In this document: positions 3,539-57,468 of the stretch, piece by piece
Layout of the letters: each line of letters begins with the position of its first letter
Position numbering within the stretch: position 1 is the first letter of the stretch
NCBI GenBank assembly: GCA_048213135.1
Contig: PS015059.1
Coordinates: 44,231-108,230 of the forward strand
Length of the DNA: 64,000 nucleotides
From: Reclinomonas americana ATCC 50394
Taxonomy: Eukaryota
Reading direction: 5' to 3'
The notes under the pieces: model-generated
Told to the model about the DNA's origin: nothing
Databases searched by the model: none
What the model saw: only the letters and a program-made list of their open reading frames with translations
Made by a program: the position numbers and the translations under genes

Positions 3539-6500
3539 TCAACTGGCAGCCCTCGAGTATCGCCGCCGCTCACGGAATCGCCGCTGTAATCTTGTAATAG
3601 CGTTGACCATGCGTACCAACTGTGCCACACGCACGCTTCAGTCGGCCCATGTGCAACACTGCACAAGGAACGGCACTCACCTTCCAGCCCGAGATCGAGC
3701 CCGACACGGTAACGGCAGAACCCGAGCCACTCTCAAGCGCGCGCAGGGCGTTCCGCTCAGCTACGGGCACAATCGTGAGTACTCAACGGATGATTCACGC
3801 GCTACACGTCGTAGACACACCAGTGACAATGCGCAGAGCGTGCCGCTGCTTGCGCAAGTCGCGCCGCAGCTCCGAGTTCATCGACAGCAGGTATTTCAGC
3901 ACTTGACTCCAGTTGGCAATCTCGCGCTCCCGCTGCTCCCGATCAAAGCTCATCTCGCGCAGATCCGCCTTCAAGTTGACGTAGTGCCTGTCCTTCACCT
4001 CACACAGCTCGCTCAAGAACTCGAGGTAGCCCTGTGTGTAGCTGTGCAGGTCCACCAGGTACGAGAAGAAGGCGTCGGCATTGTCGAACTCGTGCAGCTG
4101 CGGATGTGCCAGCGGCTCCAGCGGGAAGTCGGGTGTGAGGTACTCGCCCTGTGTGGACGCGAACTCGCTCAATCAGCACGTTGATCATACATCACAGTGC
4201 AGTAAAGGTCACACACCTGCACCGTGTGCTCTCCGCGCGGCGAGAGACGAGCATTGTTACTTCGGTAAGTGAAAGATCGCGATGTCGCCGCACGGCTCTC
4301 GGCACTCGACGGTCGCGCTCCACCGGGACTGACACCGAGTTCCGAGCCACTAATGTCCGACGAGAGCGACGACGACGGACTGCTCATGCCTGTGCTCACA
4401 CACATGCACACACACACACACCACCACGCGTATGAGATGAGAGTGTCAAGTTGCGCATTGTTCTTCCAGGATAGAAGCCCACCTCCATTTCGCGCGTGAT
4501 ACGTGGGATCCTCGTCTCGCATGCGATCCTCCTCCGAGCGCAGTCGCTGCTGCTCCACACGGTCTCGCTCGGCCTCGCTCTCCCATCGCGTGCGCTCCTG
4601 ATTCTCCCGTCGCATGTTGTCCTCAATCGGTTTCCGACTCCGCTCAAACACCTCTTGCACAAACTTGTACAGGAACTGCACCAGCTTCCAGGCCTCTTCC
4701 AGATTCGCTGCCGTCACCTCATCCATGGCCACCGTGCCAGGTTCACCGCTGTGACCTACAGGTACAGAGATTATGAGAAGGCTGAAATGCACGCATGCTC
4801 ACTACGACCTCCCGCCACGCACCTGGGTGCAGATGACGACCGGGTTGCGAAAACACTGGCCGTGCCGACGAATCGACATGCTGCATCCCACACACAAGCA
4901 CAGGCGTCAAATCACCATTCTCCAAAATCTCTCTCGCTCTTTCCCTCTCACGCACGCACCATCAGTGTGCGCAGCTCCGACTCCTTGTCGGGCGGCAACT
5001 CCACACCCATGTCCTTGACTGCGAAGGGTGGACGGGTAAGCAACACAGAACAGTGCGCCGATTAGGGCACAGTGGAGAGGACGCAACGCTTGGCGCTAAT
5101 GGATGAAATCACGCCCTCATACTTGGTACTCATAATGTACTCGCGGAGCAGATAATCGTTCTCGATGGTCGACAGCTGCATTTGCAGCTTGTTGCACAAC
5201 TCCCGATAATCGACCTGTCGAATGATCCGTCAGCACGAAAGGAGGCCAAGTTGCGAGGGTGAGCGGCTGACACCCACCTCCAGATTGACCACGGCGTGCG
5301 TCTTGACAAACATGCATCGCTGCGCAAACAGCAACGTGCTCAGCGACTCTTGCGAGCACGCTCGTGTGGGACCGACTGTCGCCACGAGGCATGTGTTGGT
5401 GTTGCCGCCGAGCGAGTCCTGTCAAGACGACGGGATGAGCAACAACGCTGCGCACACACAGTCTCCTCTTCGTCGCTCAACTTGCAGCAGGCGCGTGAGC
5501 TTCGAGTCGCGGAACGGCACGTGTGGATTGGTGGGATCCGACAGCGCGGCAATCACGTTGCCGAGCGCGGAGAGCGACTGATTGATGCTCTTGGCCTCCT
5601 CCAATCGCATGCCGTCGCTCTGTGTCTTGCGCACACGTTCACTGCCGGCGAGATCCACCATGGTCAGCTTGGAGCGAATCGTCTGCGCCATGGTGTATGT
5701 CTCCTTTTCCGCGGGCGCCTGTGACATCGAGATCGTGAGACAAGACTACCATTTTTTGTATCGCCAGTGTCTGTGCACACACCGCATCCGGAATGGCCAC
5801 ACGCTCCACCGGACGCGACACGCGCAGTCGCTGCTCCATATTGATGGTCAGCACTGTGTGCGAGCGCGACGAGGTGTCGTTCATCATCGTCGGCGCCATG
5901 ACGCGATTCTCCAGTCCCATGTTGATAATGTCGACCGCCTCGGAGATGTCGTGCACGTGCACCACCGTGAGGTTCTCCACAAAGATGCCGCGGTCGGGCT
6001 TCTCTCGAATGTTGACATTCTCGCCTTCTGGGTTCAGTAGGTCCTGAATCTGTTCGCGAGTACGGGTCATTCTCCACCTAGTCAAGCACGGTTTCGCCAG
6101 CGCACTCACCGTCTCCATGTAGATTTGCAGAAAGGATATGGAGATGGTGACAGACTCGGTCTCCGGGCTGTGCGCACTACTAAAGATGGAGCGCAGCGCC
6201 GACGGTACCAAACCGGAACCGTCGGCACGTACTGTGCCGAGAATTCCCATTGTGTACGTCTTACCAGTGCCGGTCTGTCCATACGCCATCAGCGTTCCAT
6301 TGTAGCCTTGCAGAACGTGCTGTATGGCAGCCGAGTGAGATGAGTGCGTGTGAGTGTGAGTTGAGAGGCACAGACCTCGACAATGGGAATTCCAATGGTC
6401 GAATACACCTGATCCTGCGTCACCACCGGGCCAAACACCTCATCGAACTCGAACTCTCTCGTGTGCGACTGACCACGCAAGAGCACACATCAGCGACACA

Positions 6501-6792
6501 GCGGGCAAGAGAGAGAGAGATACACGCACACAGAGAGAGAAACCTTGTTCGGCTTGAGGATGACTTTGCGTTCGCGAGGAGTGTTGATCGCCTCCACGAC
6601 ATTCTCATAGTCGGCTTCGCTCGACACCTCACTCTGGAATGGAGGACGCACACGCACGGCCACACGAACACGTCCCTCTGCGCTCGCACACAAACACAGA
6701 GAGAGAGAGAGAGACGAGTTAGGCGTCACAACAAGCGACTTAGGCGTCGCCGTTTCGTCGCTTAGTATCAACACACACACCCCACCCCCTCC

Positions 6793-34367: not shown

Positions 34368-36970
34368 CTACCGGCCATGAAAATCGGGGTCTGCGGTCTC
34401 GGATGTTCGCGCCGCTTTGGTCCGCGGCGATGCATCCACATCTGCAACATGCTCCACTGCCGGGCGCTTGCGCTCCTTGCCCCCACCAGCGGATGGTGGA
34501 GAGTGACCGCTGGCCAACGGTTGCGCAACAGAGGGTGGTAATACGGGTGAAGGAATGGGCGAGTTTCCGTCAGCTGCCGCGGCGACGCCCTGTAGCTCAC
34601 GGACGCGCGGATGCAACACCCGATGGTGGAGCGGTGAGCCCGGTCGAGCATAGCGCCGTCGATCGGGTGACTCCTGCTCAACCCCCTCCAACACCGACCG
34701 CTCCTCAGCATTGGTGCTCGGCACTGCAGTTGCGGTCATCAACGACTGAGTGACAACGCAGAGCTGGAGGTGGAGTGACGCGAGCTCACCAGAAATATTG
34801 GAGGCCTCACGAGAAGCACTCGATATTTCGTCCATGGATCCCTGACCGCTGCTGTCGGACGCCAAATCAACAGTCGTGATGCCATTCCCACCATGACCGG
34901 CACCAGCGGAGGCAGCCAGAGGTTGTAGGGCGGAGCCGACATTGTCATATGTGGCAACAGCTGTCGACGATAGTGATGACGATGATGGACCAGCCGATGA
35001 GGACTGGAGTGGCGAAGCCATTTGTGAGACCGGCACCGGCTCCACTGCAAGCCGCACAGGCGTTTGCACATCGTCACCCCACTTTACAAGCGCCAGTTCA
35101 AGTTGTGGCCGTCGTGGTGACGAAGACACAGGCGGAGACGCCTTGCCACGCGCAGAGTCCATGGTCAGCACGGCTCCCTTGGTCGAACGGCCTGTCACAG
35201 AGCGAGTCAGCAAAAGAGTGAGAACGTCACAAGAAGGGGAGGCCAGACAGCAGCACGAACCAGCCGTCGTCTGCGGCTTCCTTGGAGAGTTGTGTGCCGA
35301 CGAGGGTGCCGAAGGTGGTTGGAGAGGGAGTTGCGAGGACTGACTGCTTGACGGCGGTGGCGGCAGCGGCGACATTGAGGGTCTCTTGGATTGCGAAGTT
35401 GTTGTAGAAGCAGCAGCAGCGGCCGCCGCCGCCGCAGCTGCGGCTGCGGCTCCAGATGGGCCAGGCAAGAGTGAACCCGTGTGCGAGGGCGGAAGTGGCA
35501 TGTGTGACGGAGGCCCCACTCGGTTTTGCGAACCACCGGCACCCACGGACGACGCACCACCACCTGCACCTCCACCACCAACAGCTGGTGGAGCGCCGAC
35601 CAGCCGTGACCCTGGACCCACACCCGCAGGAGGAGGAGGAGGTGGTGGTGGTGGTGGCGGCGGCGGCGGTAGCACAGCCGGTGGGCCAGCCGCCCGCTTC
35701 GGATCGGACCTGGGTACACCTCCACCGCTGCCGCTGTTTCCCAGCTCTGCACCCAACGCATTGCTCTGCTTGCCGGCCGCCACCTGCCGCCGCTGCGCAG
35801 CCTGCGCGGCTGTCTGCACCGCAGCCGGAGCCAAAACACCACGAGGTGCCGTCGACGTTCCCACTGCTGCTGCTGCCGCTGGTGGAGCGGCGGCTGTCGC
35901 TGTCGTCGTCGATGTTGTTGTCGTTGTCGTGGTTGTAGTTGACGACGAACTGGTGGCCGTAGTCGCGCTGGAGCCAGTCGACGAGGAAGACAATGAATGA
36001 TGGCCGGGCAGTCCGACGGGCACCGCAAACGCAGATGACGACGACGCAGCAGGAGCGACTGGAACTCCCGACGTGTACGGTTCCAGTCGCCGCAGAGAAT
36101 CTCCAAAGCGCTGGCACCACTGACACGCCGACAGCATTCCACTCTGCGCATGCGGGCACGCACTGGTGTGCTCACGTGCCACGGCTTTCAATCGCCGAAA
36201 CATTCGCCGAGCAGGCGTATCCGCCGCAGCCGCACTCGCTTGCTGCATCTGCAGCTGCGACATGGATGACAACGACGAAGACGACTGCCCGACTCCCTGC
36301 GCGCCCAACGGCGACGACGAGGACGATTCTGGCTTGGACCCAGAACCAGCGGCACTCGCATTCTTCCGCCCCCGTTTGCCCTGAACACACACACACATGT
36401 GGATGTCAGTCGAGTGGAGTCGTCTCGTCGTCACTGCGATTACACGCAACTGTGCTCGAGGAAGTAGTGGTGGTGGTAGTGCTGGTGGCAGTGGACTCGA
36501 CCAGACCAACAACTGGCATCATCAGATCGCCGACTCGGCTGTCGAGGACCAAGCCGAGTGGAGTCGACGATGCGAGTCCCATGGAAGTGGCACGATAGCG
36601 ATCCATACCACTTCCTCCTGCTCCTCCTCCTGCTCCTCCACCTCCCAGTCCAGTGCCACCCCCGCCACCTGCATGCATGCGCGATGGTGCGTGAGTCAAA
36701 CACAGTTGGTCATGGCCATTGCAACCTGCGTGTGTGCGCGTGCGCCCCGTCTGTCTCTTCCTATGCAGCGCGTGCGAGTGTGCGTGAGTGCAGGCGGTGA
36801 TGCAGAGCAGTGACACACCGGATGGGAGCATCTCGCTTTGTCGGAGACTAGACGGACAATGTGTGCGTCCTGTGGGACTGCATGCTTTTCTCCGAGACGG
36901 ACTCGCGATCGCAGCGACGTGCAAACCTGCAGATTTGTTGCAACTCGACTCGTGGAATCGAAGCCATTCG
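34368..36970 (-). CDS. Hypothetical low-complexity (Pro/Ser/Gly/Ala) protein with a small Cys/His cluster and basic NLS-like patches
   Basis: 714-aa ORF 34368-36512 containing GKRGRK, REHTSACPHAQSGMLSACQWCQRFGD and KERKRP; 5' exons uncertain. Confidence 0.5.
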
Positions 36971-37417
36971 GCAACATACGTTGCAAGACGCGATCGGCCC
37001 GGACAAGAAATCAATGTCGAAAATAGTCGCGACCTGACTGCGGTTCAATGGACCAGAGCAGATGCAGCACTCGCTTGACAGTGTTTGCGGACGGTCAGTG
37101 CAGCTACATAGACACCGCGCAGCCCACCTGGTGAGAGACTCCCTGCATTTTCAGGCGATCACTGGTAGATGCTCATTGTTGTGTATGGATCAGTGAAGTT
37201 TCTATTATTCACTGCAATTCGACACGATTCGAACATGCCGGTTTTTGCCGCGCAGATTGCTGGCAAGTTTGGTGCCAGTGGACGTGGATAAAAGCGTCAG
37301 TCGACGCCGGTCGAGAGTAGAAACACTTTCAACACCAACTCAAGAGACAAGACAACCAGGAAGCAACAGCAACACAACAACNNNNNNNNNNNNNNNNNNN
37401 NAACAACAACAACAATC

Positions 37418-38110
37418 ATGCAGATCTTCGTCAAGACCCTCACCGGCAAGACCATCACTCTCGACGCTGAGCCGACCACCACCGTCGAGGCCTTCAAGGA
37501 GCTCATCCGCAACAAGGAGGGCATCCCCGCCGACCAGCAGCGCCTGATCTACGCCGGCAAGCAGCTGGACGACGCCCGCACTCTCGGCGACTACAACATC
37601 ACCAAGGAGGCCACCATTCACCTGGTGCTCCGTCTGCGCGGTGGCATGCAGATTTTTGTCAAGACCCTCACCGGCAAGACCATCACCCTCGACGCCGAGC
37701 CGACCACCACCGTCGAGGCCTTCAAGGAGCTCATCCGCAACAAGGAGGGCATTCCAGCCGACCAGCAGCGCCTGATCTACGCCGGCAAGCAGCTGGACGA
37801 CGCACGCACACTCGGCGACTACAACATCACCAAGGAGGCCACCATTCACCTGGTGCTCCGTCTGCGCGGTGGCATGCAGATCTTCGTCAAGACCCTGACC
37901 GGCAAGACCATCACCCTCGACGCTGAGCCGACCACCACCGTTGAGGCCTTCAAGGAGCTCATCCGCAACAAGGAGGGCATCCCCGCCGACCAGCAACGCC
38001 TGATCTACGCCGGCAAGCAGCTGGACGACGCCCGCACACTCGGCGACTACAACATCACCAAGGAGGCCACCATTCACTTGGTGCTCCGTCTGCGCGGCGG
38101 CCGCTGCTGA
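37418..38110 (+). CDS. Polyubiquitin-like precursor: three identical, strongly divergent ubiquitin units plus RC tail; intronless
   Basis: 3 x 228-nt units [76 protein letters not shown]; units differ only at synonymous sites; strong C/G-ending codon bias. Confidence 0.95.
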
Positions 38111-38283
38111 ATCCGCAGTCGGGCGCCGGCGGTCTAGAGGAAGCAATAATGATGGTTGTACAGCAACAATGTAAAACACACACGTACATGCAGAAAGCAA
38201 CGGCATTGACCATAAACAGCAATCTTCATCGCACTCACTCCACCAAAAACAATTCGATTCAGCACACCACTACTCTCTACGGA

Positions 38284-39009
38284 TCAATCCTGCTTCACCA
38301 CGACGCAAGCGCACGAGGTTGGCGAGTGCATAATCACGTGCTCCGCAACCGATCCCAGCGTCGACTTGCTCTGCAGCAGACGTATAAGGGACAAAAAACA
38401 GTGGCGTGCGGAGACACTGCACAACTCAACTCGTCGCGGATTCAACCCAACAGAGCCCATCACCACCACATCAATGGCCCGCGAACGAACTGATCACGCA
38501 ACACCATCCACTATGTCGGCAACAACGTGAGCAAAAGCACAAGAGCAACTCGCGCGCAACTCTCTTCGAGAATGATCTCTCGAGGTGCTCCACTGTGCTG
38601 CACGATATCGTTGTTCTCCGCACCAAAGCCGCACAGCTCCAAGTCCGTTTGCTTGTCATGCAGCAACGCACGACCCTGCTCGTCGCAGAAGTGAGCACAC
38701 GAGACACACACATGATCGCGCGCATTTATCAGGAGTCACCTGTGCGCCGGGACTCGTGGCCTCCTCGGAGCAGTTGAGCAGCGTGATGTGATCAATGTCT
38801 GGTCGTGCCAGGCGAACGCACCAGTCGAAGGCCTTCAGAGAGCACTTGCTGCGACGACGACGAGAGGGAAAAAAGATGCGATTTGAAGATTCCGATTCCC
38901 GCTCTTTGTCTCACTCGCTTGCTTGCTGTGTGCGCACGCACCTTCCGTCCATCGGCACCAGGTAGCGCACTGGCGGGCGCGAGCGAGCAGCATCAGAAAC
39001 ATCAGCCAT
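38284..39009 (-). CDS. Universal stress protein (UspA domain)
   Basis: Spliced RYLVPMDG|SKCSLKAFDWCVRLARPDIDHITLLNC...GAPREIILEE...AIDVVVMGSVG...TLGSVAEHVIMHSPTSCACVVVK; typical USP motifs (VxxDGS, DxxVMGSxG, LGSVAxxV). Confidence 0.85.
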
Positions 39010-39116
39010 GGTCGTTGAGCTCGTGTTCTCTCTCACACAAATAAAAAGCTAAGCGGAAGATTCCGACGGTCCCGCGCGCGTCCTGTTGTTCGATTTTCTC
39101 GTCATATCAACAAAGA

Positions 39117-42100
39117 ATGAGTGGGAAGAAGAGCGGAAAGGCCGGCGGAAGCGGCGGCGGGAAAGCCAGCAGTGGAAACAGCATGCAGGAGTTGATCAAA
39201 ATGCAGGGCTCCAGTCGCACACAAAAGCGCGTGCAGTTGAAGGAGAAGAAGGCGGCAAGTCGTTCGCGCGAGGCCACCACGGGTGATTTTGATGGAGTCA
39301 AGATTGTGGTGCGCATTCCCTTCGTCTTGTGTGCCTGATCGCTGCGCAGTGTGTTGAGCGTAATCGTGCAATGTGCGTGGTGCAGAAGAGAAAGCCGTTT
39401 GAGAAGAATCGGAAGCGCAGTCTGTCGGCTGCTGCGTCGGTGAGTGGGTGCACAGGGGCAGTGGGGCGAGAGGCGCGTGCGCTGGAGACACGACGGGCTG
39501 CAGAAAGTGTGGTGCTCGGCGTGTTGTGCATGTGCATGTGCAGATGTGCATGCACACACTTTTTTTGCTGACACACACACGCGCGCCCCCGCCTCTTCCG
39601 TGTGCCGTGCAGGATGAGTTCGACGATGATGATGACGATGGATCGCCACAGCAGAAGCGTCGTAAGGTGGCACCGTTGAGTGCGCAGGGCAAGAAGGACG
39701 AGGAGAAGCGGGTGCTGTCCAAGAAGGAGCGCAAGGAGCGCTCGAAGGAGAGGTCAGAGACCGCCATCTGCACCACGTGTTCGAGTGAGACAGGCGGTGA
39801 CTGATTCGTGTGTGTATGTGTGTGTGTGTGCATCGGAACAATGCACAGGCGATCGAAGCGCATGGAGCATTTCGACGAGTTGGATCAGGCCAAGAAGCTG
39901 TGGGAGAAGGCTCGTCCCGGCAATGTGACCAAGGATCGCAGGAGCGTGCTGGTGGCCAAGATTCACGAGCTCCTCGACGGAAAGCTGCATGAGGTCAGAG
40001 GAAAGAGAGAGAGAGAGAGAGACAGACAACACGGCGGGAGCACTTGTCCAACTGGGTTTCGTCGTGCAGATGGTGTTGCGGCAGGATGGATCGCGTGTGG
40101 TGCAGTTCATGCTCAAGTACAGCCCGATGGATGTGCGACGAGGCATGATTGATGAGCTGAAAGGTGTGCGCGCTCGTGCAAGCGTGCGACCATGTCTTTG
40201 GGTTGCCGACCAGTATTTTTGTGCAGATCAAGTGGTGGATCTGGCGGAGGACGCCTTTGGTCGCCACATTGTTCGCAAGATGTGCGTTTAGATGCCTTGT
40301 TGTGTGCTCTTCTGGTCCGCAGCATTGCTCATTCGACTCTTTTTGCAGGCTCAAGTATGCCGACCCCGACCGTAAGAACACGTTGGTGTCGCAGTTTTAC
40401 GGCCGAGTCCGTCCTCTGTTGACACACACGGTGTGTGCAATCGTTGTTGTTGGTGGTGGTGGTGGTATCTCTGATGCACGGGGCTCACGACTGTGCACAT
40501 GCAGCACGCCGGCGAGGTGCTCGAGTACATGTATTCGGAGGTGGCGACGTCCCGCCAGCGCTACATGATGCTGCAGGAGTTCTTCGGCAACGAATACGTG
40601 CACTTCAAGTCGGACGATATTCACTCTCTCGACGACTTGTTCGCCCGCTATCCCGATCGTCGTGCCGCAGTCATTGAGTCGCTGTCGAAGCTGCTGCACA
40701 AGTTGCGTCGCTTTGTGCCCACCTCCTCTTGCATGCATCCTCAATGCGCTTCTTCTTCTTCGTGACTGCAGTGCTGCACTGAAGGAGATTATGCTGAACT
40801 ACACAATCGTGCACCGGTTATTGCACGAGTTCTTCCAGCACGCACCGCCGGCCGAGTGCCGTGCGATGGTGCCGGAGGTGTCGGAGGCTCTGATTCACAT
40901 TCTGCACACCAAGGATGGTGCGGCTGTGGCTGCCGCGTGCATCACTTACGGATCGGCCAAGGAGCGCAAGGCCATTCTCAAGACGCTGCGTCACCACGTG
41001 CCGGCGGCGGCGGCCGACAGCAATGGTGTCGTGGTGCTGTGCCGTGCGTTGCAGGCGGTCGATGACACGGTGTTGACATTTAAGACGGTGTTGGGAGTTG
41101 AGTTGGCCTGGTGACGCTGTTCTGTTGTGTATTCGCCAAGCTGACGGTCTGTTGTTGCTGTGCAGGAACTGATTGCTCCCGATGAGGACGCTGAAACGGC
41201 GGCCATGGAGACGGACGCGGAGGCAGAGGGTCCGAAACCGTCGGCGGCTGCGGTGTCGAACGCCGATGTGCGCCGTGTGACTGGCTTCCTCAACGTGGCT
41301 TGCGATCGAGTGGCACGCAAGGTGCTCCTGTTTGTGGCGTCGGGCTTGAAGGCGCTGCCGAGATATTTCAGCGAAGATGAGCGCCGCATTCTCGATCCGC
41401 TGACGATTGAGGTTGGCGGACAGGTACGTCTCACAAGAGGCTTGTGAGACGTGTGAGTATCGTGGTTCTGACCAGAGTTTGGTGGTGGTGGTGCTTGCAG
41501 TCCAAGAAGACAATGGAGAAGAGATGTCAGGAGCTGTTGTTCGACCGCGTGACAAAGCGGTCGGTGATGGCCGGGCAGGTGTCGCAGCACTTGACCTCGA
41601 TCTTGCGTTCGTACGAGGCTTGCGATGTGCTGGTGGAGCTGATGGCGGCCTTTGAGAGCGACTCGGAGGACGCCAGTGAGCTGACCGATTTGGTCTCCGA
41701 TGCGTTCATCGAGCAAGAGGACGAGCTGCTGGCCTCGCAGCCGGGCGTTCGTGCCATCAAGCGCATGATCAAGCACTCGGGCGAGCACCCTGAATGTTGC
41801 GTGTGTTGCTGTCTGTCAATGAGAATTGGTGTGTGTGTGTGTGTTGCTCACTGGTGGCGACAGCATTTGATTTCGCGCGAGTGTTCCTCCGGCGCATTTC
41901 CGATCGCCTTCCCAGCTGGTGCGCGTCGGGCTCACTCGGTGCTTTCATCGCCGCCTCCTTCATCGACAATCCACAAACGTCGGCCACGGTGAGTTGCACC
42001 GACATTGAGGCCGGCTGTGTATGATTTGCGTGTGCCTCACACGCTGCTCTGTGATGATCAGGTGTGCAAACTGCTGGCTCCGCACGGCAAGAAGATTGCG

Positions 42101-42349
42101 GCCAAGGGCAAGACCGGCAGCAAGGGTAGCGAGTTGGTCGCCAACTTGCTAAAGCAAAAGTTGCTGCCGGCGGGCGGTGCTGCGCCTGCTGAAGCGTCGT
42201 CGTCGTCGTCGTCAACACCAGTTGCTAGCAAGGCCGCCGCCGCAGCCGCAGCCGCAGCTGCTGCCGCCGCGAATGCTCCGAAGGTGTCCGCCAATGGCAA
42301 GGCACCGGCAGTCAACGGCAAGGCCGGCAAGAAGAAGAAGGCCAAGTGA
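39117..42349 (+). CDS. PUM3: Pumilio homolog 3 / Puf-A / Puf6-like nucleolar RNA-binding protein
   Basis: Basic N-terminus, AKKLWEKAR, DGSRVVQFMLKYS, FGRHIVRKMLKY, IVHRLLHEFF, LHTKDGAAVAAACITYGSAKERKAILKTL, AVDDTVL; Lys-rich C-terminus. Confidence 0.9.
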
Positions 42350-42410
42350 ACCATGTGAATCACCAATACGGCTGCCCTACGTTTCTCTGTTAATCATCAT
42401 CATTGCTTCA

Positions 42411-43805
42411 CTACTGACTGTCGTCACCGGCCGCTTCACCCTCCTTGTCCAAGCCGTACTTTTCTCTCACCGCCGCCAACTCCTCCTGCCGCTTCTTCAC
42501 GTCGAGTCGTTGTTGCATCTTTTGTTGTTGATAGTATAGCACAATCAGGTATCGGTCCAGGACGTTGAAACCGTTCAAGTGATCCAGCGCCTGCTTGGCA
42601 TCGAAAATGTCCTCGAAGACGACAAAGGCGGTGCCGCGGGTGTCCTTCTCGCAGCCACTGGTGAAGGGGAGGGTCAAGGGAGAGCAGGATGACGATGAGC
42701 GATGTGATGAACGAGAGACAGCAAGAAGAATGAGAAGAACAGAGAGTCAGCAAGAAGAACGAAAGGAGGATGGGTGACGATACGAAGAAGAGTGAGATGC
42801 TTGCTGCTTGCATCACCAACGATGAAGGAAGAGACAGCACGAGCAATTGAGTCAAACAACTGCAGAGAGTCGGAGGGTGGGTGACGATACGAAGAAGAGT
42901 AGATGCTTGCTGCTTGCATCACCAACGATGAAGGAAGAGACAGCACGAGCAGTGGAGTCAAACAACTGCAGAGAGTCGGCAAGAAGAACGAAAGGAGGAT
43001 GGGTGACGATACGAAGAAGACTAAGATGCTTGCTGCATGCATCAACAACAATGAAGGAAGAGACAGCACGAGCAATGGAGACAAACAACTGCAGAGAGTC
43101 AGCAAGAAGAACGAAAGGAGGATGGGTGACGATACGAAGAAGAGTGAGATGCTTGCTGCATGCATCACCAACGATGAAGGAAGAGACAGCACGAGCAATT
43201 GAGTCAAACAACTGCAGACTATCAGCAAGAAGAACGAATGCTGGGTTCGCAGCATGCACCACCAACGATGAAGGAAGAGACAGCAAGAGAAGTGGAGTCC
43301 AACGATTGCAGAGAGTCAGCAAGAAGAACGAAAGGAGGATGGGTGACGATACGAAGAAGAGTGAGATGCTTGCTGCATGCATCACCAACGATGAAGGAAG
43401 AGACAGCAAGAGCAGTAGAGAGTCGGCAAGAAGAAAAGATGGATGGGCGACGATACGAAGAAGAGTGAGATGCTTGCTGCATGCATCACCGACGATGAAG
43501 GATAGCGTGGTTGTGGAAATGAGCGAGAGACTAAGAAGGTGGATCAGCAAGCGACAGCAAGATGGATGTGTCCCCTCTCATTTCCTCTTCTCCTCCCCCT
43601 TATGCGCAACAGTCGAATCTGCCTAATGGCCCCAAAGCGCCCGAAAATGTCATACATCTCCTCCGCCTTGATGTTGTACGGCAAGTTCCTGTGTGACACA
43701 CACACACAGAAAAAATTGAGTGTCTCGTGCAATGCAGACACAGCATGCACAGCAACACACACCGAACGTAGAGAATGCGAGAGCACTCCGGTGGCAACCG
43801 CGTCT
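42411..43805 (-). CDS. SF3B6: Splicing factor 3B subunit 6 (p14), RRM; first exon not located
   Basis: [82 protein letters not shown]. Confidence 0.95.
42711..43500. repeat. Intronic minisatellite, ~123-bp unit, ~7 partly truncated copies, in the last intron of SF3B6
   Basis: GCAAGAAGAACGAAAGGAGGATGGGTGACGATACGAAGAAGAGTGAGATGCTTGCTGC recurs at 42751, 42979, 43102 and 43319, with variants at ~42875, 43225 and 43426. Confidence 0.9.
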
Positions 43806-43975
43806 GTGTGAAGAAAGAGAGAGAGAGAAAGAGTGAGCGCCATCACACGACATGTCACGCGCGCACACACACACGCAGAGGTGAGCGCGCCCCACTATGA
43901 ACACCACGTGCAAGGCAACGACTGATCACGTTTAAAGGCAGAGACTCAATGCACAGAGAAACGAGAGACAATTGC

Positions 43976-44065
<90 letters not shown>

Positions 44066-44467
44066 TAGTAGTGTAGTAGTAGTAGTACGTACGACGACGT
44101 ACGACGTACGTACGTACGTACGTACGTACGTACGTACGTACGTACGTACGTACGTACGGTACGTCGTACGTACGNNNNNNNNNNNNNNNNNNNNNNNNNN
44201 NNNNNNNNNNNNNNNNNNNNNNNNNNNNNNNNNNNNNNNNNNNNNNNNNNNNNNNNNNNNNNNNNNNNNNNNNNNNNNNNNNNNNNNNNNNNNNNNNNNN
44301 NNNNNNNNNNNNNNNNNNNNNNNNNNNNNNNNNNNNNNNNNNNNNNNNNNNNNNNNNNNNNNNNNNNNNNNNNNNNNNNNNNNNNNNNNNNNNNNNNNNN
44401 NNNNNNACGGTTCGGACGGTACGGAGGTAGGGTACGGGTCGGGTCCGGGTCGGGTCGGCGGACGACG

Positions 44468-44629: not shown

Positions 44630-47377
44630 GTCTCAACGAGTGACGAGGTGTTCCGCGACCCGAGTATGCCGATCGAGGACCGCGTGCGCGACCTGATTGC
44701 GCGCTTGTCTCTGGAGGAGAAGGTCTCGCAAATGGGTCACGAGGCCTTGGCGATTGAGCGACTGGTGTGCTGCTGCTGCTGCTGCTGCTGTTGATCGTTC
44801 GTTGTCGACCACTGCTGTTGATGGTCTGCGCTGTGTAGGGCATTCCGCCGTATGTGTACTGGAATGAGGCGTTGCATGGGGTGGCGAGGGCGGGAACGGC
44901 CACGGTGTTTCCTCAGGTTTGTCTCTGTGTTCCCCACTGGTGAGTGCAAACGTCGCTGATTAATGCGTAGGCGATTGGTCTGGCGGCCATGTGGGATACG
45001 GCGTTCATGAGGAGTGTGGCCGAGGCCATCTCGGACGAGGCGCGCGCCAAGTATCATGAGGCGTCGGAGAGGCAAAAGGACTATGGGCACTACAAGGGTG
45101 AGCCGTGTGCACGCCCATGTGTGCGTGTGTGGCACTCATTCGTCGCGTCGTGCTGTGGCAGGTCTCACGTTTTGGGTGGGTATCAGCTGGCCTCACCGCT
45201 CCCTTCCCCCTCTTGTCCCTCACTCCCTCCACAGTCTCCCAACATCAACATCTTCCGCGATCCGCGCTGGGGTCGCGGACAGGAGACCTACGGCGAGGAC
45301 CCATTCCTGACATCGCGCATGGCCGTGGCCTTTATTCGTGGTCTGCAAGAGATTCCTCACCACCACCGACGCAGCAGTGAGCCGCATACGCTGCTAAAGA
45401 CCGCCGCCTGTGCCAAGCACTTTGCTGTGCACTCGGGACCGGAGGCCTCGCGCCACCGATTCAACGCGGAGGTGTCGATGCGGGACTTGCGCGACACGTA
45501 CTTGCCGGCGTTTGCCGCCAGCGTGCGAGAGGCGCGTGTCGAGTCGGTCATGTGTGCCTACAATCGGGTGAATGGCGAGCCGGCGTGCGCCAGCCAGACG
45601 CTGCTCGGCAAGATTCTGCGCGAGGAGTGGGAATTCGACGGGCACGTGGTCTCTGATGTGCGAACCCGTGACATGTGCCGCTCCCTCCCTGTCTCTCCCT
45701 TCTCACTCCTCGCTGCACAGTGCTGGTCGCTGCTGGACCTGTTCGACAAGAAATGCCACGGAGTGGTGGACACGGAGGAGGAGGCCGCGGCGCTGGCGGT
45801 GAAGAACGGCTGCGATCTGAACTGCGGCCACACCTTCCGCCGGCTGGTGGCCGCCGTGAAGCAGGGTCTCGTGGACGAGGCCGTCGTGGACCGTGCCGTC
45901 GGCCGTCTGCTCACCACACGCTTCCGATTGGGCATGTTTGATCCGCCGGAGCGACTGCCGACGCAAGTGCGTCTGCCGCTGGACGTGGTCGACTCGAACG
46001 AGTTTGCCGACCGGGCACTGAATGCGGCGCGGCGCTCCTTGGTCCTGCTGAAGAACACCAACGGCTTCCTGCCGCTCAACGCCAACTCGGTGCGCCAGGT
46101 GGCCGTCATTGGCCCCAACGCCCACAATGCCGAGGTGCTGGTCGGCAACTACGCGGGCCAGCCGTCGCGCGACGTCACCTTCCTGGAGGGTCTGCGCGCG
46201 CGTCTGGGCGTGGCACGTGTGCGGTTCGCGCAGGGCTGTCGCGTGTTCAAGGAGAAGAAAGTTGGTGAGTGTGGGTGTGATGACGGGAAAGGGCGGGGAT
46301 CGTCGTTGTGACTCACACCTACACGTGCACAGACACCGGCTTTGACAACATTAGTGAGGTAAGAGTCGCATGCTTTGGTGCACGGCGTGAGGTGCCGCTC
46401 AGTCTTTGTTGCGGTGGCAGGCGGTGGCGATTGCGCAGCGGTCGGATGTGGCGATCCTCTTCCTTGGTCTGAATGCGAGTGTGGAGGGCGAGGGTTGGTC
46501 ATATTGTTTTGACTCGTGCGTCAAGCCACTCCCTGACATGCTGTGTTGTGGTGATGCAGGCGATGGCGAGACGGACGCCGAGACCGATGCGTCGCTGTCG
46601 GGCGACAAGCTGCATTTGAATCTGCCGGGCCGGCAACAGGAGCTGCTGGAGCGCGTGCATGCCACGGGCACACCGGTGGTGTTGGTGCTGGTCTCCGGCA
46701 GCCCGTTGTCGGTGACATGGGCGCACGAGTCCACCATTCCGTCGATTGTGCAGGCCTGGTATCCGGGTCAGGCCGCGGGCACGGCGCTCACCGAGCTCTT
46801 GTTTGGCGACGTGAGCCCGGCCGGCCGTTTGCCCATCACCTTCCCGCGCTCGGTCGACGACTTGCCGCCGTTTGACGAGTACTCGATGGTCAACCGCACG
46901 TACCGCTACAGCTCGGTGGAGCCGCTGTACCCGTTCGGCTACGGCCTGTCGTACACTCGGTTCGAGTATCGCGACGTGGAGCTGACGACGACGCGGGCCA
47001 CGGTCGACGAGGTGGCTCACCGACCACTGCCCGTGCGCTTCACCGTCTTCAACGCCGGCGAGCGCCAGAGCGACGAGGTCGCGCAAATGTACGTGCGCCG
47101 CGAGGGCGGTCGCGCCAACTTTGAGCTGCGCGGCTTCGTGCGCCTGCAACGCCTCATGCCCGGCGAGTCGCGGTCGGCCCGCTTCGAGCTCTCCGCCCGC
47201 CACCTGGCCACCATCACCGACGACGGCGAGTGCCTCCTCCTCCCCGGCACCTACTCCATCTTTGTCGGCGGCTCACAGCCCGACCAGCGCAGCGTGTCGT
47301 TGATGAGTGGTGTCGAACCCATAGAGATCACCCTCTCCATCACTGGCGACGACCCAGTGGAGGTTCCCTACGCGTAA
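44630..47377 (+). CDS. Glycoside hydrolase family 3 (beta-xylosidase/beta-glucosidase type) with C-terminal Fn3-like domain; start exon probably in gap
   Basis: FRDPSMPIEDRVRDLIARLSLEEK, WNEALHG, ATVFPQ|AIGLAA, GLTFW|SPNINIFRDPRWGRGQETYGEDP, KHFA, MCAYNRVNGEPAC, VVSD|CW (nucleophile Asp), QAWYPGQ, PAGRLPITF, YPFGYGLSYT. Confidence 0.96.
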
Positions 47378-55703: not shown

Positions 55704-55775
55704 GGTGCCGTGGTCTAGTGGTATGATTCTCGCTTAGGGTGCGAGAGGTCGCGGGTTCAATCCCCGCCGGCGCCC
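55704..55775 (+). tRNA. tRNA-Pro (anticodon AGG), intronless
   Basis: GGTGCCG/CGGCGCC acceptor stem, TGGTCTAGTGG A box, CTCGC-TTAGGGT-GCGAG anticodon arm, GGTTCAATCC B box, followed by an oligo-T Pol III terminator. Confidence 0.97.
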
Positions 55776-55946
55776 CTTCTTTTTTTTCCTTTTTTCTTTT
55801 TTTTTTTTCCCTGTTTGTTTGCACGTGCCTTGATGGATCAAAGCAGCAGTGTGGTCTTTACAGGGACGGAGTGATCAGAGAAGGCCAGTGCGAAGCAAAC
55901 ATTGTCCGACAAGGACACGCGTACAACAAAACAAAACCAACAAAGG

Positions 55947-57009
55947 ATGCAAGACGACGCACTGCGCCTGCGCAAGATCGCCTTTGTGTCTTCGCTCGAT
56001 GGCACCACACCATGGAACGTGATGCTCACCATCTGCGTTCTCCCAGTGCGTCAGTCGTTCTCTGTTATTCATGCACCCACAATGTCATCGCTCACCTCCG
56101 CTGCGCGCAGACAGTGGAGCACGCACACGCACTGCTGGCACCGCTCATTCTGCGCTATGCCACCCCCGCCAGCTGGCGACGAGTCGTCTCTGCGGCACTC
56201 GACATTGCCTTGAAAGTGTGGCTGCCGCTCTTCTTCCTTACCGCCGGCTACGAGTGGTGGAAACGAGCAGAGTTCAGTGTGCCGCTGATGGTGGCGGTGC
56301 ATGCAGCTGCATGGATGATGATGACGAAGAACAAGGAGAAGGAGGAGAAGAAGGACGTGATGGGTCGACGACTGGGGTTTCTCAGTGCAACTCGCGCCAC
56401 GCTGATGATTGCCACTTGTTGCGTGCGAGCGAGCGTGTTGTGCTCTCCTCTCTCCTCACTCCTCACCATTTATCATCCTGTCGTGCACAGGCATCTCGAT
56501 CTTGGCGGTCGACTTTCCTGTGTTTGCTCGGGAGCTGGCCAAGACGGAGACGTACGGCTCGTCGCTGATGGATGTCGGTGTGGGAGTGTTTATCGTGTAT
56601 CTCGGCCTGGTGTCCAAGTCGACGGCAGTGGAACCGGTGCATGTTCCGCTGCGTGCACGACTGCGCCGTGTGCTGTTCGGCTCGGGTCCGCTGCTGTCGA
56701 TTGCGGTGGTGCGGCTGGTGGTCACTCGCCTGCTCAACTACCAGGAGCACGTCAGTGAGTATGGCGTGCACTGGAACTTTTTCGTGACCCTGGCCGTGAT
56801 GCTGGCCGTCGACTCGCTGGTCACCGTGCGCTCTCCCAAGGCGGCACTGATGGGTGCCGTGGGCATGCTGGTCGTGCATGAGGTGGTGGTGCTGCGGCTG
56901 CTCGGTGGCGCGGCGTACATTCTCGACGATTCGGTGCGCCACGCCAACCTGCTGGCGCAGAACAAGGAGGGCGTGCTGAGCCTCACGGGTGGGTGGCACG
57001 AAAGTAGGA

Positions 57010-57071
<62 letters not shown>

Positions 57072-57468
57072 GGTAGGTAGGTACGGTAGGTCGGTACGGT
57101 ACGGTACGTACGTACGGTACGGTCGGTACGGTACGGTACGGTACGTAACGAACGTAACGTACGTACGTACTTACGTTNNNNNNNNNNNNNNNNNNNNNNN
57201 NNNNNNNNNNNNNNNNNNNNNNNNNNNNNNNNNNNNNNNNNNNNNNNNNNNNNNNNNNNNNNNNNNNNNNNNNNNNNNNNNNNNNNNNNNNNNNNNNNNN
57301 NNNNNNNNNNNNNNNNNNNNNNNNNNNNNNNNNNNNNNNNNNNNNNNNNNNNNNNNNNNNNNNNNNNNNNNNNNNNNNNNNNNNNNNNNNNNNNNNNNNN
57401 NTACGAGTACGTACGTACGTAGACGTACGTACGAGAGTAGTACGACGTACGTACGTACGAGACGAGAG

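Follow-up and report, generated by a model that had tools for sequence, protein, structure and literature searches.

A polyubiquitin-type gene of Reclinomonas americana encoding three identical units of an unusually divergent ubiquitin without K29 and serines

The stretch of DNA analysed here, hereafter the window, comprises 64,000 nucleotides (64 kb) from Reclinomonas americana ATCC 50394 (assembly GCA_048213135.1, contig PS015059.1, positions 44,231 to 108,230 of the forward strand) and is numbered below from its first letter. At 37418-38110 on the plus strand, it contains a single open reading frame (ORF) that encodes three head-to-tail units of a ubiquitin variant. The gene is of the polyubiquitin type, and the ubiquitin that it specifies is unusually divergent, is kept uniform among the units, and lacks both K29 and serines. 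Our preferred reading, to which we give about an even chance, is that the genome has ordinary ubiquitin genes at other loci and that this polyprotein gene supplies an extra, lineage-restricted and selected variant. Published papers are cited in the following from excerpts of their text, by PMC number.

The ORF is comprised of 230 codons and a TGA stop codon, i.e., three 76-codon units followed by Arg-Cys. Unit 1 occupies 37418-37645, unit 2 occupies 37646-37873 and unit 3 occupies 37874-38101, while the C-terminal cap (Arg-Cys after the last Gly-Gly) and the stop codon lie at 38102-38110, all on the plus strand. The units are joined without spacers, as is typical of polyubiquitin genes, and Tandem Repeats Finder describes the ORF as 3.0 copies of a period of 228 nucleotides with 95% matches and 0 indels. 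The Pfam ubiquitin family PF00240 matches the ORF in three stretches with 299.8 bits. Capping residues after the final Gly-Gly are another polyubiquitin feature; two of them are present here, and polyubiquitin genes have been reported to carry one additional capping codon at the end (PMC10457151). An assembly gap of 20 Ns (37382-37401; not assigned to a strand) within an AAC-type microsatellite ends 16 bases upstream of the ATG, and the 5′ leader of the gene is therefore incompletely known. Only a short ATG-initiated upstream ORF, which terminates, and the AAC repeat are found upstream of the gene. The heat-shock-element motif has four matches in the window against 9.35 expected, and none of them lies within 1 kb upstream of the tri-ubiquitin gene.

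At the protein level, the three units are the same. Unit 2 differs from unit 1 by eight silent changes, and unit 3 differs from units 1 and 2 by seven and 11 silent changes, respectively. In total, 13 of the 228 nucleotide columns vary among the units, and all 13 are synonymous because 12 are third codon positions and the remaining one is a first-position CTG/TTG change between leucine codons. Each unit has 56 synonymous and 172 non-synonymous sites, which yields pairwise synonymous divergence (dS) of 0.14-0.23 and non-synonymous divergence (dN) of 0; the probability that 13 of 13 changes would be silent if changes were random (neutrality) is 1.2e-8. About 40 non-synonymous changes would be expected at a dN/dS ratio (omega) of 1, by hand calculation from the site counts, and since none is present, omega is below about 0.08. 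The tri-ubiquitin gene is under strong purifying selection. The silent drift between units with a fixed protein also implies that the units are not merely fresh copies of one another. Ordinary ubiquitin genes likewise drift at silent sites while the protein is held constant (PMC10457151).

With regard to the protein itself, alignment of the unit with human polyubiquitin-C by HMMER gives 57 identities over 76 residues, and the 19 differing positions are 16, 17, 20, 21, 23, 25, 26, 28, 29, 31, 32, 38, 45, 51, 53, 57, 62, 65, and 67. Residues 1-15, 39-44, 46-50, and 68-76 form blocks that are unchanged from ubiquitin. The residues that make up the functional surfaces of polyubiquitin products (L8, R42, I44, K48, H68, V70, R72, and the LRLRGG tail) are all retained. 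K6, K11, K27, K33, and K63 are kept as well; six of the seven chain-forming lysines (6, 11, 27, 29, 33, 48, and 63) are present, and position 29 is occupied by Leu. Serines 20, 57, and 65 are replaced by Thr, Gly, and Ala, respectively, and the unit contains no serine at all. The changes are densest in the helix (residues 23-34), where seven of the 12 residues are altered; the others fall in the loop 16-21, at positions 38 and 45, and in the region 51-67. Four changes (V17A, I23V, V26F, and L67I) touch core residues, which may represent compensated repacking. D21 and K29, which we take to be the two partners of one contact, have been lost together. Deep mutational scanning in yeast named R42, I44, K48, G75, and G76 as sensitive positions, with L8, V70, I36, L71, and L73 added under stress (PMC4862753). 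None of the 19 changed positions of the variant overlaps with these ten, as named in the excerpt of that study.

The unit is predicted to adopt the beta-grasp fold of ubiquitin. Its AlphaFold2 single-sequence model has a mean predicted local distance difference test (pLDDT) score of 86.8, and the order of strands (E) and helices (H), E-E-H-E-H-E, is that of ubiquitin. The best Foldseek matches of this model in the PDB are ubiquitin chains, with a template modelling (TM) score of 0.96 and a root-mean-square deviation of about 1 Å. By sequence, 1D7, a designed core mutant, is the best single-unit PDB match, with 117.8 bits for the complete unit and 31.2 bits when residues 16-45 are taken by themselves; wild-type mono-ubiquitin scores 116 bits over the full length.

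Most of these features had been pointed out in an earlier note made from the sequence alone, and they are borne out by the analysis. The HMMER alignment returns exactly the list of 19 positions and the 75% identity to human ubiquitin given there, and agrees with the loss of K29 (to Leu), of S20, S57, and S65, and of serine altogether. The residues which it described as kept, i.e., R72, the L8-I44-V70 patch, K48, K63, and LRGG, are all identical in the alignment with human ubiquitin. The statement that the three units share one protein and differ only silently holds for all 13 variable columns of 228, and the claim that the variant is selected is upheld by the count of 0 non-synonymous against 13 synonymous columns (P = 1.2e-8).

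Codon usage in the tri-ubiquitin gene is distinctive. C occupies the third codon position at a frequency of 0.62, compared with 0.35-0.44 in the glycoside hydrolase family 3 (GH3), kinesin, and p14 exons of the same window, and single codons dominate for several amino acids (ACC for 26 of 30 Thr, AAG for 18 of 18 Lys, GAG for 15 of 15 Glu, and GAC for 15 of 15 Asp). This is the strongest codon bias among the window genes examined, and it fits the high level of expression suggested for the gene in the earlier note. No sequencing run contained half of the sampled words, and the 24 rows at about 5% each represent a share too small to speak for habitat or expression. A 288-codon open frame runs antisense to the entire ubiquitin gene (37340-38206, minus strand) and is most simply regarded as a side effect of the strong codon bias of the plus strand.

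How unusual the variant is was assessed from searches for relatives. The exact 230-residue and 76-residue sequences are absent from about 15 billion proteins. Homology searches with both queries gave 240 listed proteins (120 each), ranked by summed score with long canonical polyubiquitins on top, and the best single unit among them is identical to the variant at 59 of 76 positions. Relatives of at least 90% identity among fragments of 41-133 residues would be expected to rank within these lists, and none was present, while a close three-unit relative could stand lower in the ranking. A degenerate DNA pattern built on 12 variant-specific residues matched neither metagenome contigs nor viral contigs (0 in each). 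Scans for related loci used 8-residue peptides from residues 15-68; over this core, identity reached at most 74% in viral contigs, and the highest values among the matches listed for metagenomes and for prokaryote genome contigs were 72% and 67%, respectively. The closest unit found in the collections searched, with 61 of 76 identities, is located at 1959-2186 of the viral contigs L008 and L010. It is a baculovirus ubiquitin (v-ubi), because its neighbours on L010 are the baculovirus genes for P10, PP31, and LEF-11. Eight of the 19 substitutions of the variant (D16, T20, V23, E28, A38, Y45, D51, and A65) are shared by this unit, apparently by convergence. No description of the variant was found in the literature, although similar polyubiquitins may be included in the alignments and trees that supplement PMC10457151 and PMC6332867, and a 14-residue peptide of the variant had no literature match.

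For a broader comparison, a consensus was derived from 601 units (279 distinct) taken from 223 of the 240 listed matches, which is a word-biased sample. The near-invariance of ubiquitin is not seen in the variant, which has 56 of 76 residues in common with this consensus and 57 with human ubiquitin. Position 29 is Lys in 265 of the 279 distinct units and Leu in none. Twenty-four of the 601 units are as distant from the consensus as the variant, some of them being chimeric fragments. A tree was made of 370 distinct units, a unit being defined as a window with at least 40 identities to the variant, and units containing X or a stop were left out. There, the variant pairs with a metagenome unit to which it is 59/76 identical (Shimodaira-Hasegawa-like support 0.84), and its terminal branch is the 16th longest.

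Other divergent polyubiquitins were also encountered. The units of the environmental polyubiquitins P0098, P0090, and P0097 match the consensus at 59-64 of 76 positions, and P0090 and P0097 have a 77-residue period, similar to the Rhizaria-type insertion. Tetrahymena ubiquitin genes in the hit lists match it at 62-69 of 76 positions, and the metagenome locus L091 (212-667) has divergent ubiquitin units that are unlike each other. Taken with P0124 and P0126, the environmental cases (P0098, P0090, P0097, and L091) have units with about 54-64 of 76 identities to the consensus or the variant that are unlike one another. Divergent polyubiquitins appear to be commoner in environmental data than the literature consulted would lead one to expect. 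Among the sequences compared, the gene of R. americana is set apart by a combination of features, namely, the largest divergence, perfectly uniform units, and Leu29.

A general scheme for the working of the variant can be proposed. Deubiquitinases would cut the precursor after each Gly-Gly and remove the Arg-Cys cap. The free 76-residue variant would then be charged by the ordinary ubiquitin-activating enzyme (E1), passed to ordinary conjugating enzymes (E2s) and ligases (E3s), and attached to proteins; its use by these enzymes is suggested because R72, R42, the L8-I44-V70-H68 face, and LRLRGG are intact. The variant could build or join K48, K63, K11, K6, K27, and K33 chains and would form no K29 linkages. 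Serine phosphorylation of the variant is ruled out because all three canonical ubiquitin serines are absent. The remodelled helix face, together with the loss of serines, may give the variant an altered look to readers and kinases that use that side. Processing, E1 use, conjugation, and expression of the variant, as well as canonical ubiquitin genes elsewhere in the genome, are what we infer. [quoted passage not shown]

In its design, the gene resembles canonical polyubiquitin genes, such as yeast UBI4 and human UBB and UBC, which also have spacer-free 76-codon units, a short cap, and protein-identical units with silent drift. The likeness extends to the ubiquitin fold and to the intact hydrophobic patch, C-terminal tail, K48, and K63. 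On the other hand, the products of polyubiquitin genes normally show 1-3 differences, whereas the variant differs from human ubiquitin at 19 of 76 positions, has Leu29, no serines, and seven of 12 helix residues changed, and ends in a two-residue cap. A different kind of divergence is known from ribosomal fusions: UbS27a of many protists and UbL40 of Giardia and of the Plasmodium vivax/ovale lineages contain divergent ubiquitin with at least 15% of residues changed (PMC10457151). Like the variant, these ubiquitins have escaped the usual conservation, yet their fold and hydrophobic patch are retained (PMC10457151). However, each is one unit joined to a ribosomal protein and occurs together with canonical polyubiquitin in the same species, whereas here it is the polyubiquitin-type gene that is divergent.

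Whether the variant is an additional or the only ubiquitin of its genome can be weighed from several sides. Polyubiquitin-encoded ubiquitin differs at just one or two positions between Plasmodium (alveolates) and human (PMC10457151). The lineage itself is not hyper-fast, because an exon of the splicing factor p14/SF3B6 next to the ubiquitin gene (42444-42656, minus strand) is ordinarily diverged, with 40 of 71 residues identical to human; it belongs to an intron-bearing gene and lies with the ubiquitin gene on one gap-free piece (37402-44174). In addition, the lack of a close relative in the collections searched is better explained by a narrow, recently diverged paralogue than by an old lineage-wide change. 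Additional ubiquitin loci of this type are not without parallel. Human UBBP4 reportedly encodes ubiquitin variants beside normal ubiquitin, and the UBBP4/UbKEKS case resembles the present one in that an additional locus has a product that differs from the main ubiquitin and may mark different targets. UbKEKS is said to differ from ubiquitin in four residues, in contrast to three identical units differing at 19 positions. Guillardia theta has a divergent ubiquitin cluster that includes polyubiquitins, and the same resemblance holds for it (PMC6332867).

Several points weigh against an extra gene. No second ubiquitin-like sequence occurs within the 64-kb window, and canonical ubiquitin was not found there. 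The textbook architecture of a main polyubiquitin gene and the codon bias are what would be expected of a heavily used main gene, and the expression of the locus would itself be deduced from that bias. In the cases described in the excerpt of PMC10457151, it is the ribosomal-fusion ubiquitins that diverge while polyubiquitin stays canonical. Moreover, the other divergent polyubiquitins (P0098, P0090, P0097, and Tetrahymena) have unlike units, whereas the variant is perfectly uniform.

The same points lead to the foremost alternative, which we consider possible though rather unlikely, that the variant is the lineage's own main ubiquitin. Every locus (polyubiquitin, UbL40, and UbS27a) would then encode it, the loci being homogenised by concerted evolution, and canonical ubiquitin would have been replaced altogether. 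The canonical polyubiquitin architecture with its cap, the strongest codon bias among the window genes examined, and the absence of canonical ubiquitin from 64 kb all speak for this explanation. The constraint is extreme (0 of 13 changes non-synonymous), as in ordinary ubiquitin, and the surfaces for E1, E2, deubiquitinases, and the proteasome are all intact. It was also found that the 19 changes avoid the yeast-sensitive positions named in the excerpt of PMC4862753. Against it, no precedent was found in the literature consulted; as far as the excerpt of PMC10457151 describes, polyubiquitin varies by one or two residues and divergence is limited to ribosomal-fusion copies. The neighbouring p14 exon is ordinarily conserved, and position 29 is Lys in 265 of the 279 distinct units and Leu in 0. 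Finally, a main ubiquitin would be expected to have relatives in metagenomes and metatranscriptomes, but none above 61/76 was found, within the ranking and pattern limits of the searches.

The two explanations have different consequences. Ubiquitin is the textbook example of a near-unchanging protein; in this gene, 19 changes, none of them at a known sensitive position, became fixed, were copied into three units, and then came under renewed constraint (omega below about 0.08). As the product of an extra copy, the variant would be a candidate ubiquitin signal of natural origin that can be read separately and yet runs on the common conjugation machinery. If it is the only ubiquitin, extensive rewriting of the frozen face must be possible, and a whole ubiquitin system would be without K29 chains and serine phosphorylation. 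With the variant encoded at every locus, its divergence would far exceed that of any other working main ubiquitin in a free-living eukaryote with ordinary evolution. Why the mutation-tolerant face of ubiquitin is conserved across eukaryotes has been raised as an open question (PMC4862753), and a replacement of canonical ubiquitin would amount to a natural experiment on why this face is otherwise frozen. Under either explanation, complementation and binding studies could make use of a variant that nature has already provided.

Capture of the gene from a virus or another organism, followed by domestication, would be a special case of the extra-copy explanation and is very unlikely. It is suggested by the closest unit found, the baculovirus ubiquitin, which at 61/76 is nearer to the variant than human ubiquitin at 57/76 and has the eight substitutions in common with it, and by the ubiquitins encoded on many giant-virus contigs. 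The two also lie at a similar distance from cellular ubiquitin (about 76% for v-ubi, PMC10457151). However, 61/76 is still distant, and the common residues can be read as recurrent substitutions on the tolerant face. Whereas v-ubi is a single unit in a viral genome and keeps K29, the variant consists of three units in a host-like, intron-bearing region: the window is no baculovirus genome, its flanks being intron-bearing eukaryotic genes, and the intron-bearing p14 gene shares the contig piece. In its codon usage, the gene exaggerates the pattern of the host, and in the 370-unit tree the variant is not directly joined to the baculovirus group.

Algae with red-type complex plastids have a second, plastid-located ubiquitin system (PMC5487736), and it is highly improbable that the variant is a plastid import ubiquitin (SELMA/PUBL-type) of such an alga. 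The named best matches of the neighbouring kinesin, which include two chrysophytes and one oomycete (five named among 20 clusters), are a weak hint of stramenopile affinity in its favour. Yet the ORF begins with Met-Gln-Ile-Phe and has no targeting leader peptide, and no ATG-initiated upstream ORF reads into the gene, although the 20-N gap leaves a small doubt on this point. K48 is present, whereas the diatom plastid ubiquitin was reported to lose it, and a three-unit polyprotein form is not described for plastid ubiquitins in the excerpt of the same paper (PMC5487736). A plastid SELMA/PUBL-type identity was rejected on the missing leader peptide and the retention of K48.

It is scarcely credible that the gene is an artefact of assembly or a relic without function or expression. 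The scaffold is a draft with 12 N-gaps, including the one close to the start codon (ending 16 bases upstream of it), which would allow for this, but the frame is intact, 13 of 13 differences between units are silent (P = 1.2e-8), and codon bias is strong. As copies, the units can be told apart, and they do not represent a collapsed repeat.

Least credible of all is that the polyprotein consists of units of NEDD8 or of a different classical ubiquitin-like modifier. NEDD8 is the closest of these modifiers. For residues 16-45, the segment with the helix, the score is 28.7 bits with NEDD8 (1ndd), marginally above the 27.5 bits with wild-type mono-ubiquitin. Such near-equal scores mean that the segment is about equally like both proteins. 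Five residues, D16, T20, V23, E28, and Y45, presumably match NEDD8. All five are present in baculovirus ubiquitin and several recur among the 279 distinct units (D16 in 124, V23 in 34, and T20 in 24), and for this reason they are not a NEDD8 signal; the seemingly NEDD8-like residues are probably recurrent acceptable substitutions on one face of the fold. Over the full length, the 60 listed PDB matches are all ubiquitin, ubiquitin fusions, or engineered ubiquitins, with NEDD8 in none of them, and the variant is not closer to NEDD8 than to ubiquitin. Residue 72 separates the ubiquitin E1 from the NEDD8 E1, and NEDD8 has Ala72; the variant has Arg72, which is the ubiquitin state. No residue differs from ubiquitin in the N-terminal hairpin (residues 1-15) or in the C-terminal strand and tail (68-76), and the gene is a polyprotein gene, in which respects the variant is also unlike NEDD8. 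We take the variant to have about 45 of 76 identities to NEDD8, no nearer to it than ubiquitin is. Ubiquitin and NEDD8 are 58% identical (PMC10457151). A NEDD8 identity was accordingly rejected on R72, the ubiquitin-identical ends, and the ubiquitin-type character of all 60 listed PDB matches.

The NEDD8-like flavour attributed to the variant in the earlier note has not survived, given the five residues also present in baculovirus ubiquitin, the 60 listed ubiquitin-type PDB matches, and R72. The two alternatives that it offered, an exceptionally divergent main ubiquitin and a second, polyprotein-encoded modifier, both stand in so far as the gene is intact, selected, and of ubiquitin type, with the NEDD8 flavour removed.

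The remainder of the window provides the genomic context. It is a draft scaffold with 58% G+C and 12 N-gaps. A GH3 beta-glucosidase-type gene (44842-47374, plus strand) has Glyco_hydro_3 N and C domains, an Fn3-like domain, and short GT-AG introns. Its best 120 listed relatives show about 43-52% identity, and all organism names among them are bacterial, which makes the gene a candidate for bacterial gene transfer into a eukaryote. A multi-exon kinesin gene is located at 3846-6651 (minus strand), and both its motor and its tail match a protein of the chrysophyte Chromulina nebulosa. The five named clusters among those of 20 of its best matches are the chrysophytes C. nebulosa and Chlorochromonas danica, the oomycete Achlya hypogyna, Paratrimastix pyriformis, and an 'archaeon' metagenome bin; the last evidently holds a eukaryotic contig.

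Some other elements were also observed. A fragment of an SNF2-type helicase is present in the window, and the sole Rfam or ARAGORN match is a tRNA-Pro (AGG) at 55704-55776 (plus strand). Just upstream of the ubiquitin gene, an open frame of 714 codons (34368-36512, minus strand) consists mostly of Ser, Thr, Ala, and Pro homopolymer runs. At 56466-57170 (minus strand) there is a long TC/GA dinucleotide repeat, one frame of which translates into Ser-Leu repeats. Microsatellites such as AAC and CA occur often throughout the window, and several of the N-gaps fall within them.

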